Shown here: positions 1 through 4,709 of the stretch, piece by piece
Position numbering within the stretch: position 1 is the stretch's first letter
How the letters are laid out: the number at the start of each line of letters is the position of its first letter
Source of the DNA: a virus
Lineage: Duplodnaviria > Heunggongvirae > Uroviricota > Caudoviricetes
Reading direction: 5' to 3' (one strand)
Length of the DNA stretch: 4,709 bases
Virus record (IMG/VR): IMGVR_UViG_2690316142_000012
Coordinates: 1-4,709 of that record
Program-made: the position numbers and the translations under genes
Notes under the pieces: model-generated
Told to the model about the DNA's origin: nothing
Database searches by the model: none
Seen by the model: the letters and a program-made list of their open reading frames with translations, nothing else

Positions 1-30
1 TCTTAAGTCCAAACGGACAGGAGATTTAAA

Positions 31-324
31 ATGAAATTCACTTCAACCACGAATCATGTTTTCACATTCGAACGAGTAACGCTTTGCACGATTGTTCTTA
101 TTCATAAGGATACGGGACAACAGTATGTTGTCATATTTACGGATAACAATAAAATTCGTGACTATAAGACCGGAATTGTTTCTCAGTTTGGTGAACTTAA
201 GCAGAGTGATATTGATTTAATTCTTTTCTATCGGGACGAATATGAAAAATATTTTGACTCGTTAAATAATGGCGAGGAGTATTTGAGTTTTAAAGAATAT
301 ATCGGATGTATAAGGGGAAAATAA
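31..324 (+). CDS. hypothetical small protein (97 aa), no recognisable domain
   Basis: ATG at 31 preceded by AGGAG at 19..23 (7-nt spacing); uninterrupted 97-codon ORF; AT-rich codon usage typical of horizontally acquired morons; followed by further small ORFs and a terminator at 562..590. Confidence 0.6.
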   Translation: MKFTSTTNHVFTFERVTLCTIVLIHKDTGQQYVVIFTDNNKIRDYKTGIVSQFGELKQSDIDLILFYRDEYEKYFDSLNNGEEYLSFKEYIGCIRGK

Positions 325-327
325 ATT

Positions 328-387
328 ATGAAAGGTGTGTTCAGGTTGCTGGAACAACCTGAACACGTTATCGACAATCAAAACTGA
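328..387 (+). CDS. possible micro-ORF (19 aa, MKGVFRLLEQPEHVIDNQN)
   Basis: ATG at 328 lies 9 nt after AAGGGGA (312..318), 3 nt after the stop of the 97-aa gene; too short for the ORF track; coding status uncertain. Confidence 0.2.
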   Translation: MKGVFRLLEQPEHVIDNQN

Positions 388-400
388 ATGAGGTTTTTAA

Positions 401-538
401 ATGTCAACACGACAGATCGTACAGCTTGCTGACTCCCTTGTCAAAGGCTGGGAAACCAGAATTCCGGCAATGACGTGCACGGAGTGGGATCAATTCCGGT
501 GGTGGTTAAACTACCTGCAAGGGTATGAAATGTTTTAA
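401..538 (+). CDS. possible small protein (45 aa, Trp-rich: MSTRQIVQLADSLVKGWETRIPAMTCTEWDQFRWWLNYLQGYEMF)
   Basis: ATG at 401 preceded by GAGG at 390..393 (about 8-nt spacing); ORF ends at TAA 536..538, 24 nt before an intrinsic terminator hairpin; below the ORF-track size cutoff. Confidence 0.35.
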   Translation: MSTRQIVQLADSLVKGWETRIPAMTCTEWDQFRWWLNYLQGYEMF

Positions 539-561
539 ATAACCGGGATAAATTCATATAT

Positions 562-590
562 GGGGAGAGTGTCATGCTCTCCCTTTCTTA
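562..590 (+). terminator. intrinsic terminator for the plus-strand small-gene operon
   Basis: Stem GGGAGAG (563..569) / CTCTCCC (577..583) with 7-nt loop, followed by TTTCTTATT. Confidence 0.55.
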
Positions 591-608
591 TTGGGTAGCG
601 AGTTGTAT

Positions 609-657
609 TACATATTTAGCTTTACGTTGTAAAGATTTTATTGTCTTTACAGTGTGG
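609..657. repeat. bipartite palindromic element, copy 1 (CTTTAC-GTT-GTAAAG at 620..634, then CTTTACAGTGTGG at 645..657); candidate operator
   Basis: Perfect 6-bp inverted arms with 3-bp spacer; second half-element starts 16 bp after the first element ends; same architecture at copies 2 and 3; shares ATTACATA..AGCTTTAC lead-in with copy 2. Confidence 0.7.
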
Positions 658-735
658 TGCGTTTTCCGGCGGTTGCGCTGCGCTTAGGGGTATGTGGCTT
701 CGATGATCCAGGGTATTTCGACGTAATGCGTTGTA

Positions 736-1179
736 TTACGATGTATACTCTTTAATTGCTTGCAATCTCTTTTCACGTTCGTTGCTTTGTTGGGCCTTTT
801 CCAGTTGGCTGTATATGTACTCTTCATCTTTACCCGTGAGTATTGAGCCGGAGAGCAGACGATTAATAACTATACGTTTAATTTCTGGGTAATCTTTGGT
901 TTTATCGAGTATGGACAATATGTGGTCACTGCTAAGAATTATCCCACTCCATGAGTCTAAATAGCTCTTAAAAATCACAATCATAAACACACCGAAAAGC
1001 ATTATGATGATTGTTACCACATTAATGCTAAACGTTGATATAAAGGTATACGCGGCCACACCAATTATTGCTAAACAGAGACATAAATAAATGAAACCGA
1101 TTTTGTTGCGTTGCTTTTTTTCTGCACGATCATGATCATCTATGATTTCCAGTATCTTTTCTGGGATTAGTTGAGTCAT
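736..1179 (-). CDS. small membrane protein (147 aa), two predicted transmembrane helices, ~77-aa soluble C-terminal domain; function unknown
   Basis: ATG at 1177..1179 (minus) preceded by AAGGAA with ~5-nt spacing; two hydrophobic stretches (IGFIYLCLCLAIIGVAAYTFI and VVTIIIMLFGVFMIVIF) separated by a short loop; charged N- and C-termini. Confidence 0.7.
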   Translation of the reverse strand: MTQLIPEKILEIIDDHDRAEKKQRNKIGFIYLCLCLAIIGVAAYTFISTFSINVVTIIIMLFGVFMIVIFKSYLDSWSGIILSSDHILSILDKTKDYPEIKRIVINRLLSGSILTGKDEEYIYSQLEKAQQSNEREKRLQAIKEYTS

Positions 1180-1211
1180 TTTCTTTCCTTATTTGGGACA
1201 CGGAGTGTTTA

Positions 1212-1260
1212 ATTACATAGCTTTACATTGTAAATCTATGTTTGTCTTTACGATGTAAAT
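1212..1260. repeat. bipartite palindromic element, copy 2 (CTTTAC-ATT-GTAAAT at 1221..1235, CTTTAC-GAT-GTAAAT at 1246..1260); candidate operator over the membrane-gene promoter/leader
   Basis: Same 16-bp spacing between elements as copies 1 and 3; sits between the membrane-protein start codon (1179) and a candidate minus-strand promoter. Confidence 0.7.
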
Positions 1261-1287
1261 GATGAGATGTGCAGTTAAAAGTGTCAA
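1259..1287 (-). promoter_or_regulatory. candidate sigma70 promoter for the membrane-protein gene
   Basis: On the minus strand: perfect -35 TTGACA (plus 1282..1287), 17-bp spacer, -10 CATCAT (plus 1259..1264); the transcript would start inside repeat copy 2. Confidence 0.3.
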
Positions 1288-1359
1288 TCAGATATCATAT
1301 AGTAAAATACTATATTATTTTCTATGTATCACATACACAGCGATAAAACTGGATAAATG

Positions 1360-1397
1360 ACTTACACTGTAAAGATTGAGCTGTCTTTACAGTGTGG
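1360..1397. repeat. bipartite palindromic element, copy 3 (ACTTAC-ACT-GTAAAG at 1360..1374, CTTTACAGTGTGG at 1385..1397); upstream of the hicA promoter
   Basis: Second half identical to that of copy 1 (CTTTACAGTGTGG); same 16-bp spacing. Confidence 0.65.
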
Positions 1398-1423
1398 TTC
1401 ATAAGGCATACGAATGAAATAAT

Positions 1424-1452
1424 TTGCCTTTGTGTGTATGCGTGTGTATAAT
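1424..1452 (+). promoter_or_regulatory. candidate sigma70 promoter of hicAB
   Basis: -35 TTGCCT (1424..1429), 17-bp spacer, consensus -10 TATAAT (1447..1452), about 24 nt upstream of the hicA ATG; spacer is an alternating purine-pyrimidine tract (TGTGTGTATGCGTGTG). Confidence 0.5.
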
Positions 1453-1475
1453 TATCCTCAGGTTAGGGAGGACAT

Positions 1476-1658
1476 ATGAAATCTGCTGACCTGTTGAAAG
1501 AACTGATAGCTGCTGGTTGCGAGTTGAAACGGCATAAGGCAAGCAGTCACCAGATATGGTGGTCGCCAATAACAGGAAAAACTTTTCCTGTTCCTCATCC
1601 TAAAAAGGACTTGCCGCTAGGTACTGTCAGATCGATCAAAAAAATGGCGGGGATTTAA
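1476..1658 (+). CDS. hicA: HicA-family type II toxin (mRNA interferase), 60 aa
   Basis: GGGAGG RBS 4 nt upstream of ATG; protein has HicA hallmarks: small size, a His-containing segment (SSHQIW) and the characteristic C-terminal PHPKKDLPLGTVRSIKKMAG motif; immediately followed by a HicB-like gene. Confidence 0.9.
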   Translation: MKSADLLKELIAAGCELKRHKASSHQIWWSPITGKTFPVPHPKKDLPLGTVRSIKKMAGI

Positions 1659-1666
1659 TCCCCGCC
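1646..1666 (+). other. perfect 9-bp stem hairpin spanning the hicA stop codon (GGCGGGGAT-tta-ATCCCCGCC)
   Basis: Inverted repeat read directly; hicA TAA stop (1656..1658) sits in the loop; no T-run follows, so not a simple terminator; 7 nt upstream of the hicB RBS. Confidence 0.5.
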
Positions 1667-1682
1667 GACTTTGGAGGTAGCC

Positions 1683-2120
1683 ATGTTCTTTTCTGTTGGT
1701 GTCGAAACACCGAAAGATGATCATACAGCATACGGTATCACCGTTCCGGTTTTTGATTGCTTTGATTTTGGATGTGTTTCTGCTGCTGATTCTCAGGCAG
1801 AAATACCCGCAATGGCGCGTGAAGCGATATTGGCAATCGTGGAAGAGATGGTAATAAGCGGTGCTCATTCTGTTGATGATATTCATGATGAAGGGTGTTT
1901 GACTTATTCCGCCAACCCAAATTATAACCACTGTGATAGCTGGTTTGTAATTGATGTTGATTTGTCAGAAATTGAGGGCAAACAACAACGTATTAATATT
2001 TCATTGCCTGATGTATTGATTCGTCGTATTGATGGATATGTGAGAGAAAGTGGTGGCGTATACAAAGATCGTAGCCATTTTCTGGCTCAGGCGGCACGTC
2101 ATGAACTTGCATATAAATAA
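1683..2120 (+). CDS. hicB: HicB-family type II antitoxin (145 aa) with C-terminal ribbon-helix-helix DNA-binding domain
   Basis: ATG at 1683 with GGAGG (1673..1677) 5 nt upstream (ORF track extends to a TTG at 1671); N-terminal HicB-like region and C-terminal RINISLPDVLIRRIDGYV...RSHFLAQAARHEL typical of RHH (CopG-like) domains; directly downstream of hicA. Confidence 0.85.
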   Translation: MFFSVGVETPKDDHTAYGITVPVFDCFDFGCVSAADSQAEIPAMAREAILAIVEEMVISGAHSVDDIHDEGCLTYSANPNYNHCDSWFVIDVDLSEIEGKQQRINISLPDVLIRRIDGYVRESGGVYKDRSHFLAQAARHELAYK

Positions 2121-2124
2121 AACT

Positions 2125-2152
2125 ATCCCCGCGTTGTGCGGGGATTTTTTTT
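2125..2152 (+). terminator. strong intrinsic terminator after hicB, probably bidirectional
   Basis: Perfect 8-bp GC-rich stem ATCCCCGC (2125..2132) / GCGGGGAT (2138..2145), 5-nt loop, then T8 (2145..2152); on the minus strand the same hairpin is followed by AGTTTTATTTAT, so it may also end the convergent minus-strand operon. Confidence 0.8.
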
Positions 2153-2159
2153 GATAGCT

Positions 2160-2221
2160 AACCGCTCGCCGCAGTCCAGCGACCGAGCATAGCGAGCGAG
2201 TGACGAGGAAGCGGAAGATCC
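2160..2221. other. segment resembling ColE1/pMB1-type plasmid backbone sequence (origin-proximal region of pBR322/pUC)
   Basis: From memory of the pUC/pBR322 sequence (ACCGCTCGCCGCAGCCGAACGACCGAGCGCAGCGAGTCAGTGAGCGAGGAAGCGGAAGA): the window has ACCGCTCGCCGCAG..CGACCGAGC..AGCGAG..CGAGGAAGCGGAAGA in the same order; roughly 80-85 percent identity by eye, not computed. Confidence 0.45.
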
Positions 2222-2250
2222 ACCGTTGCCAGGAGAAAAGCAGGTACGCA

Positions 2251-2571
2251 CTATGCGTTCTGCCCTAGTGATGCTTTCACAAACCACGCAGCCTGAACTA
2301 TTACGCCATGAATCCAGCGCAAATCGGCATCACGATTTTCTTTTTTCATTTTTTCGCCACTTAAAGCCTTGCTTACGTGACTTTTTACCAGATTTTCGTG
2401 TAATTCTTTTGCTTCTTCAATTGTGAAACCACCAGGCAAATTTGGCGCTTCTGCTTCCAGCGATGCCAGTGCGATTTCATAAGCCCGACGCTCAATATTG
2501 TCTCGGACGTCCAGGCTGCCTATACGCTCTCTGATTTCTTTAATCAGTTCTTTGTCGGTTAAAGTGGTCAT
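2251..2571 (-). CDS. hypothetical prophage early-region protein (106 aa); N-terminal module shared with the 136-aa protein
   Basis: ATG overlaps the stop of the upstream 171-aa gene (ATGA); AAGGAA RBS 7 nt upstream; shares the motif IALASLEAEA and a 19-nt nucleotide identity with gene 3385..3795. Confidence 0.7.
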   Translation of the reverse strand: MTTLTDKELIKEIRERIGSLDVRDNIERRAYEIALASLEAEAPNLPGGFTIEEAKELHENLVKSHVSKALSGEKMKKENRDADLRWIHGVIVQAAWFVKASLGQNA

Positions 2572-3083
2572 GCTGCGTTTCCTTCTTTCTTATTAACAAT
2601 TACACCGTCATATATTTCATTAAGGTGTCCTCTTAGCTCCATGCGCCTTAATGCAGATAACATGTAATCGCATTCAACCTGCTTATTCCCAGTAAATGGC
2701 TTATCGTCAGGATTACCCCAACAGCAATTACCCCTGGGCCATCCATGTACTTTCCGTACTCTTCCGTTAACAACGTGAAGTAATCCCCAGCCGGGAGGTA
2801 AATCCTCAACTGAAATAATTTCCGGCTCACTAATAAAGAATCGCCAGTCGCCCATGCCAAGTGAGGGATTTTTACGGAAACGCTTTTTTCTATCTGCCAA
2901 CAAGTCAGCACGAGAACACTTCGCCTCTATCAGGCATGATGCTGAATTTCTGAATCCCATAGCATCTGGCTGTTCTCCGGTACTGGTTACAGCAACAAAG
3001 CGGTCATGAAAGCAAACCTTGAACCCGTTGCGCTTAAGGAACTTGTACGCAATCTGACAGAGTTCGTGGTGTGTTAACGCCAT
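2568..3083 (-). CDS. PD-(D/E)xK nuclease-like protein (171 aa), possibly MmcB-like; tentative
   Basis: Start at ATG 3081..3083 (MALTHHELCQ) preceded by GGGAAAGGAAAGTGAT; motif order E...PD(AMGF)...(L)IEAK(CS) matches the PD-(D/E)xK nuclease core; the ORF-track N-terminal extension (MGKESD) is probably not translated. Confidence 0.7.
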   Translation of the reverse strand: MALTHHELCQIAYKFLKRNGFKVCFHDRFVAVTSTGEQPDAMGFRNSASCLIEAKCSRADLLADRKKRFRKNPSLGMGDWRFFISEPEIISVEDLPPGWGLLHVVNGRVRKVHGWPRGNCCWGNPDDKPFTGNKQVECDYMLSALRRMELRGHLNEIYDGVIVNKKEGNAA

Positions 3084-3119
3084 ATCACTTTCCTTTCCCA
3101 TGTTGTCATGTGTTAGTCC

Positions 3120-3383
3120 TTATCCTGCTGTGCTTTCAACTGATGAGGGGAATAAAATCTTTTCATCAAATCCGGCATTCATATCATGGACAGCAACACA
3201 CCAATCCATCGACGAACGATTATCAAGAGCCTCCATGATTTCATCCATGCGGCGCAGGTCATACAGGTAAATGCTTTTATCGCCAATGGTGTAAAAACCA
3301 ATTTTTTTCGGTGATGGGCAGCGATCAAGAACGTCCTGTAATTCGTTCAACCATGCCCGTTCTTTTTTTGTTAAAGTTGCCAT
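3120..3383 (-). CDS. hypothetical prophage early-region protein (87 aa)
   Basis: Start at ATG 3381..3383 (MATLTKKERAW) preceded by AAAGGAGAGTGAT; the upstream gene's stop lies 1 nt before this ATG (TGA-T-ATG); the longer ORF in the track is an out-of-frame read-through of the upstream gene's 3' end. Confidence 0.7.
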   Translation of the reverse strand: MATLTKKERAWLNELQDVLDRCPSPKKIGFYTIGDKSIYLYDLRRMDEIMEALDNRSSMDWCVAVHDMNAGFDEKILFPSSVESTAG

Positions 3384-3396
3384 ATCACTCTCCTTT
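3242..3396. repeat. 155-bp exact direct repeat, copy 1 (identical to 4555..4709)
   Basis: Base-by-base identity read from the sequence; covers the RBS and first 47 codons of the 87-aa gene; left boundary is sharp (3241 T versus 4554 A). Confidence 0.95.
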
Positions 3397-3795
3397 CCCA
3401 TGAAGCATAGCGGCGCGGCAGGCGTTCCAGCCTGTAGCGTATGCAGCCGCTTTGCTGCTGCCTTCAACTGGCGCATCCTGCCAATACATTTCATCCGGCA
3501 CTACCGGCGCTGGCAAGGCTGCGTGATAGTAGAGTGGCATAGTTTTGTACAGTGGTTCGCCAGGACTTCCGTCAACCTGATTCCATTCTTCAACCCAGGC
3601 ATCAACAACCGCTTTGCTGGTTGATACATGTTCTTCTGAATCTACATTTTGTCCTGATATACAGAACATAACTGCCTCTGCTTCCAGCGATGCCAGAGCA
3701 ATTCGTGCCAGTTCCATTTGTTCGCCACGAGTAAGTCCGTTATCAAGCGGATTTTTAATGAATAATTTGATACGTTCTTTGGTTATAGCGTTCAT
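3385..3795 (-). CDS. hypothetical prophage early-region protein (136 aa); N-terminal module shared with the 106-aa protein
   Basis: Start at ATG 3793..3795 (MNAITKERIK) preceded by AAGGAGAGTGAG; the upstream 203-aa gene's stop lies 1 nt before it (TGA-G-ATG); contains ELARIALASLEAEA. Confidence 0.7.
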   Translation of the reverse strand: MNAITKERIKLFIKNPLDNGLTRGEQMELARIALASLEAEAVMFCISGQNVDSEEHVSTSKAVVDAWVEEWNQVDGSPGEPLYKTMPLYYHAALPAPVVPDEMYWQDAPVEGSSKAAAYATGWNACRAAMLHGKGE

Positions 3796-3796
3796 C

Positions 3797-4408
3797 TCAC
3801 TCTCCTTTGATGCGAATGCCAGTAGCGCGGATTGCATCGATGACTTCAGAAACTTTGTATGCCATTACCGTTTGGTAATCATCGTGAAAATCTGTTCGAT
3901 GAAGCATGCTGCTACGTTCCGGGAGCGATATTTCCCGAGCATCCAGTTCCTTAACGCGCTCCTCCAGTTCGTAGACCCTGCATTGTTCTCTATCATCAAT
4001 CAGATATAACCCAAGACATTCGCTTTCTACCCAACCGCCAAAATCATGATCGTAACGCTCACATGAAAACTCACCGTCACCGTCCTTTGTTGGAATGGTG
4101 TAACTATCTAATGGGCCACCATATGTCGGCACATTTCCCAATGTTGGATGCTCAATCCACATGAAAAATGCACGTCCGGTTATTGGGCAAATATCTGGCC
4201 GCCATTGGTTACGAACAGCCTTGGTTTCGGATAATTCTTCAGCGTGTTGTTTTACTTCCTCAAGCTCGTATCGCTTCAGGTTTGCGATATTTGATAAATT
4301 CAGCGCCAGTACAGCCAGGTCATAAACCTCTTCGGCAGTGACATCGCTGTTCAGTCCCATTTCATGGCGATATATGATTTTTTCTACTCGTTGTTTTGTG
4401 ATCGTCAT
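3797..4408 (-). CDS. hypothetical prophage early-region protein (203 aa); possibly ead/Ea22-like, unverified
   Basis: Longest ORF in the operon; preferred start ATG at 4406..4408 (MTITKQRVEK) with GGAG 11 nt upstream; ORF track extends to a TTG at 4432; ends KGE-stop within the RBS of the next gene. Confidence 0.65.
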   Translation of the reverse strand: MTITKQRVEKIIYRHEMGLNSDVTAEEVYDLAVLALNLSNIANLKRYELEEVKQHAEELSETKAVRNQWRPDICPITGRAFFMWIEHPTLGNVPTYGGPLDSYTIPTKDGDGEFSCERYDHDFGGWVESECLGLYLIDDREQCRVYELEERVKELDAREISLPERSSMLHRTDFHDDYQTVMAYKVSEVIDAIRATGIRIKGE

Positions 4409-4516
4409 TTTTCTCTTCACTCCGATATACAAGGATTACCACACCCCCTCTGCTGATTGCGCGAGCTGGATCCCCTGGTTCCATGCCGTCAATTCCGAAG
4501 GCTTCGGAAAACGCAT

Positions 4517-4696
4517 TCATTGCCTTCTGGCGTTCATCCTGCTTACGGCGTTTACATCCATGCGGCGCAGGTCATACAGGTAAATGCTTTTATCGCCAAT
4601 GGTGTAAAAACCAATTTTTTTCGGTGATGGGCAGCGATCAAGAACGTCCTGTAATTCGTTCAACCATGCCCGTTCTTTTTTTGTTAAAGTTGCCAT
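4517..4696 (-). pseudogene. truncated chimeric duplicate of the 87-aa gene (first 47 codons identical, then 12 unrelated codons and a stop; 59 aa)
   Basis: Lies in copy 2 of the 155-bp repeat; translation from ATG 4694..4696 gives MATLTKKERAWLNELQDVLDRCPSPKKIGFYTIGDKSIYLYDLRRMD then VNAVSRMNARRQ-stop; the preceding 4698..4709 encodes a KGE-stop gene end as at 3385 and 3797. Confidence 0.4.
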
Positions 4697-4709
4697 ATCA
4701 CTCTCCTTT
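4555..4709. repeat. 155-bp exact direct repeat, copy 2 (identical to 3242..3396); continues to the window edge
   Basis: Offset of exactly 1313 bp from copy 1; true extent unknown because the window ends. Confidence 0.95.

Follow-up and report, generated by a model that had tools for sequence, protein, structure and literature searches.

In lambdoid phages, the genes of the early-left region shuffle as mosaics at conserved gene-boundary sequences. Integration by a single crossover, also referred to as Campbell-type integration, leaves direct repeats of the segment of homology. The IncI2 plasmid lineage spreads blaCTX-M-55 among other resistance genes. Finally, the integration of foreign DNA by homology at one end and an illegitimate join at the other is documented in E. 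coli during conjugation (PMC3240628). The locus described in the following has an exact 155-bp direct repeat that is very probably the scar of a prophage block inserted into an IncI2 plasmid, most likely by a homologous crossover combined with an illegitimate join. It is a case of ordinary phage–plasmid mosaicism in a highly mosaic phage-like array; the allele is undescribed, and the type of event is well known.

The window, i.e. the whole stretch of 4,709 nt that was analyzed, is the reverse complement of the complete 4709-bp short-read draft contig CXBN01000221.1 of assembly GCA_001251235.1, which was identified by an exact-sequence look-up with the 59-aa open reading frame (ORF) described below. 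Window positions 1–3396 match the closed 58.8-kb E. coli plasmid pEc42_3 at 99.94% identity with 2 mismatches and no gaps, and this match terminates precisely at position 3396. The left part of the window is matched at 98.3–99.9% identity by a family of conjugative plasmids of about 60 kb, whose gene content includes hicAB, a TraL-like gene, a NikA/MobC-like gene, and an LPD7 relaxase. One collinear relative of the window, pHN1122-1, is typed as IncI2 / MOBP / MPF_T, and NikA-like, relaxase, and TraL-like genes are also present in the sibling contigs of 60–61 kb that are considered below. Judged by the backbone synteny and the near-identity to typed IncI2 plasmids, the window, whose 4.7 kb include no rep gene, is part of an IncI2-type conjugative plasmid. 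The first-pass annotation had taken the element for a prophage, which does not agree with the match to pEc42_3 and its IncI2 relatives.

The IncI2 plasmids pHN1122-1 and pC21-1 (blaCTX-M-55) and pEc42_3 have a backbone order like that of the window, with hicAB, the 106-aa, 177-aa, 87-aa, and 235-aa genes, the TraL-like gene, NikA/MobC, and the relaxase. What these closed plasmids lack is an insertion that consists of a 136-aa gene, a 203-aa gene, a DUF4752 fragment, and a remnant of the 87-aa gene, and they have a 149-aa gene or hybrid genes at the position where the window has this insertion. In pEc42_3, which represents the empty arrangement, the 87-aa gene is located directly downstream of the 149-aa gene. 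The repeat and the gene to which it belongs have the following positions in the window:

3120 to 3383, minus strand: intact 87-aa gene (WP_000224227.1, PHROG 1714), a cassette common to plasmid and prophage and the homology anchor
3242 to 3396: repeat copy 1, which covers 142 nt at the 5' end of the intact 87-aa gene, or 47 codons and 1 nt, together with the 13 nt that precede its start codon and hold the SD and the stop of the preceding gene
4555 to 4709: repeat copy 2, read as the original plasmid copy of the 5' end of the 87-aa gene, still joined to the backbone 149-aa gene in sibling contigs; the contig ends at its last base
3381 to 3396, minus strand: gene-boundary motif CATATCACTCTCCTTT (reverse complement AAAGGAGAGTGATATG; '..KGE', stop, SD, next ATG), which forms the right end of the repeat

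String identity confirmed that positions 3242–3396 and 4555–4709 are an exact direct repeat of 155 nt with a spacing of 1313, and a repeat search extended the pair to 3239–3396 and 4552–4709 (158 nt, 99%), with 3241T/4554A as the sole mismatch. An exact 155-mer that occurs twice within 4.7 kb cannot be due to chance. The identity of the two segments had already been recognized in the first-pass annotation and was borne out by both types of comparison. The same holds for its left boundary in codon 48 of the 87-aa gene, as the gene resumes at exactly this codon after position 4554, and for its extension up to the window edge, the window being a complete contig that ends there.

At its right end, the repeat has CTCTCCTTT, which is the conserved boundary motif AAAGGAGAGTGA(T/G)ATG. 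This motif closes every gene of the array and is found further at positions 3081–3096, 3793–3808, and 4694–4709. Both contexts of the 87-aa gene have the motif in common and diverge immediately past it. In this respect, the array resembles the early-left (ea / ead / Ea22) region of lambdoid phages, which likewise contains ead/Ea22-type ORFs and a stop/SD/start motif that closes each gene, and the likeness extends to the neighboring alleles, which are intragenic mosaics. The locus differs from early-left shuffling in that the recipient is a conjugative IncI2 plasmid and in that one join lies mid-codon rather than at a boundary motif.

It had been proposed that the zero divergence of the two repeat copies suggests a recent event. 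This conclusion is unsafe, because the same 155-mer is identical across plasmids and prophages generally, and because graph assemblers tend to render repeat copies identical. One of the sibling contigs, L009, has an identical C>T change at the positions equivalent to 3255 and 4568, i.e. in both repeat copies, which is due either to gene conversion or to a collapse of both copies by the assembler.

The DNA between the repeat copies is of prophage origin, with these features:

3397 to 4554, minus strand: unique inserted DNA of lambdoid-prophage type, 1158 bp, matching prophage L004 and absent from pEc42_3
3385 to 3795, minus strand: 136-aa gene; its N-terminal ~55 aa are common with the 106-aa and 149-aa genes; PHROGs 5117, 3323, and 660
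3797 to 4408, minus strand: 203-aa chimeric gene, which encodes ~49 aa from the N-terminus of a 104-aa prophage protein and ~157 aa from the C-terminus of an ead/Ea22-like protein
4260 to 4267, no strand: 8-bp microhomology TCAAGCTC, located at a deletion of ~497 bp as compared with the prophage
4362 to 4520, minus strand: 3' fragment of a DUF4752 gene (52-aa ORF; PF15944, E 5.7e-11, profile positions 48–84 of 84)
4517 to 4696, minus strand: 59-aa remnant ORF, encoding residues 1–47 of the 87-aa protein and 12 unrelated out-of-frame residues (VNAVSRMNARRQ)

The 136-aa gene, the 203-aa Ea22-like chimera, and the DUF4752 fragment thus make up the content of the insert. Its donor-type relative, L004, is a chromosomal lambdoid prophage in CP173570 that adjoins cmoA/yecN. 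Window positions 3102–4267 correspond to L004 4864–6029, and window positions 4260–4554 correspond to L004 6527–6821. The gene order in L004 is the 87-aa gene, two fragments annotated as incomplete, which jointly match the 136-aa gene of the window, a 271-aa ead/Ea22-like gene, a 104-aa gene, and a DUF4752 pseudogene. Apart from the internal deletion and a private SNP at position 3520, at which the window differs from every relative, positions 3211–4554 are identical to L004.

By the ~497-bp deletion between two copies of TCAAGCTC, ~49 codons from the start of the 104-aa gene were fused to the ~157 codons at the end of the Ea22-like gene, which generated the 203-aa chimera. In the closed genomes and phages among the matches listed, the two halves of the 203-aa gene are found ~636 bp apart, which is the undeleted state, and the exact 203-aa protein had an IncI2 context in 10 of 10 cases among the matches listed (17 carrying contigs). 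The internal 497-bp microhomology deletion is an event separate from the insertion.

The two ends of the insert are of different nature, as is evident from two further features:

3102 to 3210, no strand: plasmid-type stretch of the 87-aa cassette, which contains all 9 differences from the prophage and is identical to the plasmid
4554 to 4555, no strand: illegitimate junction, with 4554 as the last base of prophage DNA and codon 48 as the point from which the 87-aa gene continues

Plasmid and prophage have only the 87-aa cassette in common (3102–3396, 295 bp). As the 9 differences are confined to positions 3102–3210, the crossover from plasmid to prophage is located within 3211–3396, and the switch in this segment is, by the distribution of the SNPs, a homologous crossover within the common 87-aa gene. 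The other end is of a different kind. With the join marked by a slash, the prophage reads GGCGTTTA/TTCTATT, the gene reads CATGATTT/CATCCATG, and the window reads GGCGTTTA/CATCCATG; a comparison of these sequences revealed no microhomology at 4554/4555, with no base in common at the join. In L004 coordinates, the junction links position 6821 to position 5004 and thus the end of a unit to its start, a type of join that is common to tandem duplication and duplication-insertion.

Two known classes of mobile elements were considered and rejected. A transposon or insertion sequence with target-site duplication does not fit, as the repeat has 155 bp instead of 2–14 bp, no inverted repeats are present at the insert ends, and no transposase domain was found. 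An integron or another site-specific insertion is likewise rejected, as there is no recombinase, there are no terminal inverted repeats, and the duplication has 155 bp.

The allele with the insert (filled), the empty site, the donor-type sequence, the SNP switch, and both junction types can be read directly from the aligned sequences, and they suggest the following order of events and pathway. The ancestor would have been an empty IncI2 plasmid with the 87-aa gene directly after the 149-aa gene, as in pEc42_3. DNA of a lambdoid prophage with the same 87-aa cassette would then have recombined with this plasmid. In the prophage, the DNA continues upstream of the cassette through the 136-aa, Ea22-like, and DUF4752 genes. 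One end would have been resolved by a homologous crossover in the 87-aa cassette, somewhere in 3211–3396. The other end, inside the DUF4752 gene, would have been linked in the absence of homology to codon 48 of the 87-aa gene that the plasmid already had. In the product, the intact 87-aa gene would be followed by 1158 bp of prophage DNA, then by the 155-bp 5' remnant of the 87-aa gene, and finally by the 149-aa gene. With such a product, the right end of the repeat would correspond to the stop/SD/start motif of both contexts, and its left end to the illegitimate join. The empty site predicted by this pathway was found, as the filled allele of the sibling contig L007 minus 1313 bp is the pEc42_3 allele. 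We favor an insertion into the empty allele over the opposite polarity, with the empty allele as the product of a repeat-mediated deletion, because the truncated copy retains the backbone-type junction with the 149-aa gene. Among the explanations offered in the first-pass annotation, a recombination between paralogous modules came closest; what has to be changed are the partners, which are a plasmid and a prophage with a common 87-aa cassette.

The same structure could also have arisen by other pathways. The illegitimate join may have occurred first, either in a donor phage or plasmid, as a tandem duplication, or by formation of a 1313-bp circle, and the DNA would then have entered the IncI2 plasmid by homologous recombination alone, in the 155-bp segment and the 87-aa cassette, through Campbell-type integration of the circle or a double crossover with the duplicated donor. 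All three routes predict the exact product that is observed, and the SNPs place the left crossover only within 3211–3396, where the identical 155-mer makes an exchange traceless. We nevertheless regard a join that preceded entry as rather unlikely, as it requires one more step than a single one-ended event, and as 5,426 complete E. coli genomes, PLSDB, the INPHARED phages, and three contig collections yielded no donor that bears the junction.

The one-ended event that we prefer can be compared with the two described modes of integration. As in homology-facilitated illegitimate recombination (PMC3240628), one end lies in a common stretch, the other end is homology-free, and foreign DNA is gained beside the anchor; the empty site is known in the present case. 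In contrast to that system, only the product is known here, the join is located inside the anchor gene of the recipient, and 155 bp were duplicated instead of recipient DNA being deleted. As in Campbell-type integration, identical direct copies lie on both sides of the insert, and their recombination would restore the empty allele, which exists in pEc42_3. Unlike the proposed event, Campbell-type integration would depend on a circular intermediate of 1313 bp, of which no evidence exists, and the locus has no site-specific recombinase or att site.

Sibling draft assemblies were found by exact protein-sequence look-ups with the chimeric ORFs of 59 aa and 203 aa. Both repeat copies are present in at least 10 other assemblies with contigs of up to 61 kb, and several contigs of 60–61 kb read through both copies. 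The exact 155-mer occurs twice at a distance of 1313 bp in nine contigs (L007, L008 (= L015), L010, L011, L012, L014, L017, L019, and L020). In all nine, the sequence after copy 1 is CCCATGAAGC, which belongs to the 136-aa gene, and copy 2 runs into GATGCGAATG, where the backbone 149-aa gene has its 3' end; the single copy in pEc42_3 has exactly this second flank. The two-copy arrangement of L009 (= L016) is the same, with one SNP per copy. When L007 was aligned directly with pEc42_3, exactly 1313 extra bp separated a left flank of 8.9 kb (99.92% identity) from a right flank of 4.2 kb (99.71% identity). Two further contigs, L018 and L021, contain only part of the structure and stop at window position 4553, on the other side of copy 2.

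A tandem duplication or amplification, in which a 1313-bp unit would be present at least twice head to tail in the source genome and the sequence from 3397 onwards would be repeated after 4709, is very unlikely in view of these contigs. The end-to-start join at 4554/4555 does have the look of a tandem duplication junction, a de Bruijn graph is blind to whether such a loop is traversed once or several times, and the source contig ends right at the fork. However, ten other contigs have just one unit, with copy 2 leading into the 149-aa gene, the filled allele is the empty allele plus exactly one unit, and a contig break at a 155-bp repeat is to be expected with a single unit as well, as exemplified by L018 and L021, which break at the same repeat. 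The tandem duplication that had been proposed at first, with a unit of 1313 bp or more, is hence not what the siblings contain, since the 149-aa gene and not a second unit follows copy 2 in the ten sibling contigs. Where the longer siblings continue past the window, the two copies cease to be identical at the base that corresponds to 4709 and have unrelated flanks, an outcome that the first-pass annotation had itself listed as counting against its proposal.

The end of the contig at 4709 is explained by the presence of two different continuations after the repeat, between which the assembler could not choose. Each of these continuations is found separately in closed plasmids, with 46 records for the 136-aa context (CCCATG...) and up to 11 records for the 149-aa context (GATGCG...). 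A graph assembly from reads shorter than the repeat is expected to halt at such a fork. In this sense, the extension of the repeat up to the window edge is an assembly effect, and the repeat itself is real.

An assembly artefact had also been considered in the first-pass annotation. In that case, an IncI2 plasmid of the empty type and a prophage of the same cell would have been fused via the 87-aa cassette into a chimeric contig, and the plasmid would have no second copy. We consider this to be highly improbable, although some aspects are compatible with it. Plasmid and prophage have 295 bp in common, and the identical part, 3211–3396, exceeds typical k-mers. Moreover, the filled allele is present in no closed genome: its junction was found in 0 of 5,426 complete E. 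coli genomes (BLAST, at least 80% query coverage), and the sole PLSDB record that covered at least 80% of positions 3380–4709 was a misassigned piece of chromosome with the undeleted prophage arrangement. The exact 41-nt junction had 0 matches in GTDB representative, IMG/VR, and JGI metagenome contigs, which are collections that do not include the relevant drafts. All evidence for the filled allele thus comes from draft assemblies, in which the connectivity over the 155-bp repeat and the copy number of the loop are assembler-inferred. Against an artefact, 4554/4555 offers no common sequence from which a graph could build the join, which hence must exist in the reads. The filled-allele assemblies in which the junction recurs come from several submitters and accession series, comprise at least 4 SNP haplotypes, and differ in the length of their relaxase genes, and 60–61 kb contigs cross both repeat copies unbroken. 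In addition, the junction is found in no closed prophage, and the deletion at 4260–4267 is found in none among the matches listed. With the two-copy structure in 10 other assemblies and part of it in two more, only the contig end has to be ascribed to assembly.

The ORF list agrees with the gene picture given in the first-pass annotation, which comprised the 87-aa, 136-aa, and 203-aa genes and the chimera of 47 + 12 residues. The in-frame ATG of the DUF4752 fragment overlaps the stop codon of the 59-aa ORF (ATGA), and its end overlaps the start of the 203-aa gene by 47 nt, as in the prophage. The translational linkage of the operon is probably retained. As the remnant of the 87-aa gene retains its ribosome site and start codon, the 59-aa peptide is probably made, and it is most likely a functionless by-product. 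With the exception of the DUF4752 fragment, the ORFs had no Pfam match (9 of 10), and the PHROG matches of the ORFs in and around the insert were restricted to phage families of unknown function. For the 203-aa protein, these were PHROG 3126 on residues 1–50 and PHROGs 250 and 1667 on the C-terminal part, whose 157 aa derive from the gene that RefSeq names ead/Ea22-like. Searches of PDB sequences with the 87-aa, 177-aa, and 203-aa proteins gave no significant result, and the single-sequence AlphaFold model of the 87-aa protein had a pLDDT of 48.9, which is too low to be used.

By its gene order, the array would be transcribed away from the intergenic region upstream of NikA, the expected oriT site in this plasmid type, and it may therefore be positioned in the plasmid's leading region. 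In many plasmids, the leading region is enriched for anti-defence genes (PMC11541004). There is a small chance that the repeats make the 1.16-kb phage-derived cassette reversible, by RecA-dependent excision as a 1313-bp circle that restores the pEc42_3-type allele, and that the exchanged early genes have establishment or anti-defence functions. If so, plasmid populations could switch between filled and empty states. Should the cassette genes act in plasmid establishment, the exchange between phage and plasmid would gain in interest; otherwise, it would carry little weight beyond book-keeping. In any case, with the empty site, donor-type DNA, and both junctions identified, the locus is a clean and in principle datable example of the capture of a cassette from a prophage early region by an IncI2 plasmid. 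It also holds a practical warning: when an exact repeat extends as far as a contig end, this tells more about where the assembler stopped than about biology.

An Rfam search of the whole window detected no family. A minor aspect concerns the left end of the window. Positions 1–36 are the end of an element that is present three times in the plasmid. When this repeated element was checked as an Frpo-like single-strand promoter, local hairpins with z-scores of -4.7 and -3.7 were found and no single long hairpin. With positions 1–36 being repeated too, both ends of the contig sit at repeat boundaries.

The open reading frames (ORFs) of the minus-strand array all terminate in '...KGE*' within one common 16-nt motif, AAAGGAGAGTGA(T/G)ATG, which unites the stop codon with a Shine-Dalgarno site and with the start codon that comes next. 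The motif is found at four places in the window, the first of which carries the variant AAAGGAAAGTGATATG:
3081-3096, minus strand, 16-nt boundary motif
3381-3396, minus strand, 16-nt boundary motif
3793-3808, minus strand, 16-nt boundary motif
4694-4709, minus strand, 16-nt boundary motif
This 16-nt motif is a conserved module boundary, and it could also serve as a short-homology recombination site.

A 30-nt repeat with 90% identity between its copies encodes the motif 'ALASLEAEA', which is common to the 106-aa, 136-aa, and 149-aa proteins:
2447-2476, first copy of the 30-nt repeat
3674-3703, second copy of the 30-nt repeat
In other IncI2 plasmids, intragenic mosaicism is seen in the neighbor of the 87-aa gene (compared in the regions 9600-10080 of L001 and 8100-8600 of L003, two of the compared sequences). 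The mosaic gene of pC21-1 has a 106-like N-terminus and is 136-like in the remainder, and that of pE200177_59 is 106-like at the N-terminus, 136-like in the middle, and 149-like at the C-terminus. Both hybrid genes are intact ORFs when read, yet they are labelled as incomplete genes in RefSeq.

The neighboring 177-aa ORF is annotated in different ways:
2568-3101, minus strand, intact 177-aa ORF
It matches PHROG 9263 (E = 7e-121), and other gene callers give a 171-aa product at this locus, whereas in closed plasmids whose DNA is identical in this region RefSeq lists no more than a pseudogene fragment of 179 bp, marked 'frameshifted'. These conflicting calls are probably an annotation inconsistency. 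L005, a compared 393-kb sequence deposited in PLSDB as 'plasmid pF17EC0245-1' (CP088875.1), contains cmoA, cmoB, and yecN together with an integrated lambdoid prophage whose layout is identical to that of a chromosomal locus; this record is probably a chromosome fragment wrongly labelled as a plasmid.

The sibling contig with the same two-copy arrangement (L009 / L016, CXCA01000005.1) shows the same C>T exchange in both repeat copies, at positions equivalent to 3255 and 4568 of the window, a pattern that reflects either gene conversion from one copy to the other or an assembler that collapsed the two. Position 3520 of the window is T, whereas all compared relatives (plasmids, prophage, and sibling contigs) have A, or C in the case of L014, and this T is either a sequencing error or a substitution in the 136-aa gene that is private to the window.

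An intact toxin-antitoxin pair, followed by a terminator with a typical hairpin and T-run, is convergent with the minus-strand phage-like gene array:
1476-1658 and 1683-2120, plus strand, hicA/hicB
2121-2155, terminator after hicA/hicB
Palindromes of the type CTTTAC-N3-GTAAAG occur three times in the window, with 0.01 expected. They are contained in three repeats of about 48 nt (family D2) that lie on both sides of a membrane-protein ORF and upstream of hicA (1476):
620-634, 1221-1235, and 1246-1260, CTTTAC-N3-GTAAAG palindromes
1357-1402, inverted repeat listed with these palindromes
736-1179, minus strand, 147-aa membrane-protein ORF
The palindromes are probably operators to which a regulator binds.

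At the left contig end, positions 1-36 form the terminal part of an element of 222-534 bp that is present in three copies in the plasmid, located in the compared sequence L002 at:
3084-3305, first copy
3814-4035, second copy
6036-6257, third copy
Every copy directly precedes an ORF on the plus strand (these ORFs are one of 109 aa, one for a J-domain protein, and one of 97 aa). When folded as single-stranded DNA, the element formed several local hairpins (z = -4.7 and -3.7) but no single long hairpin of the Frpo-like kind. The element could be a repeated promoter, or a leading-region element for single-strand initiation.
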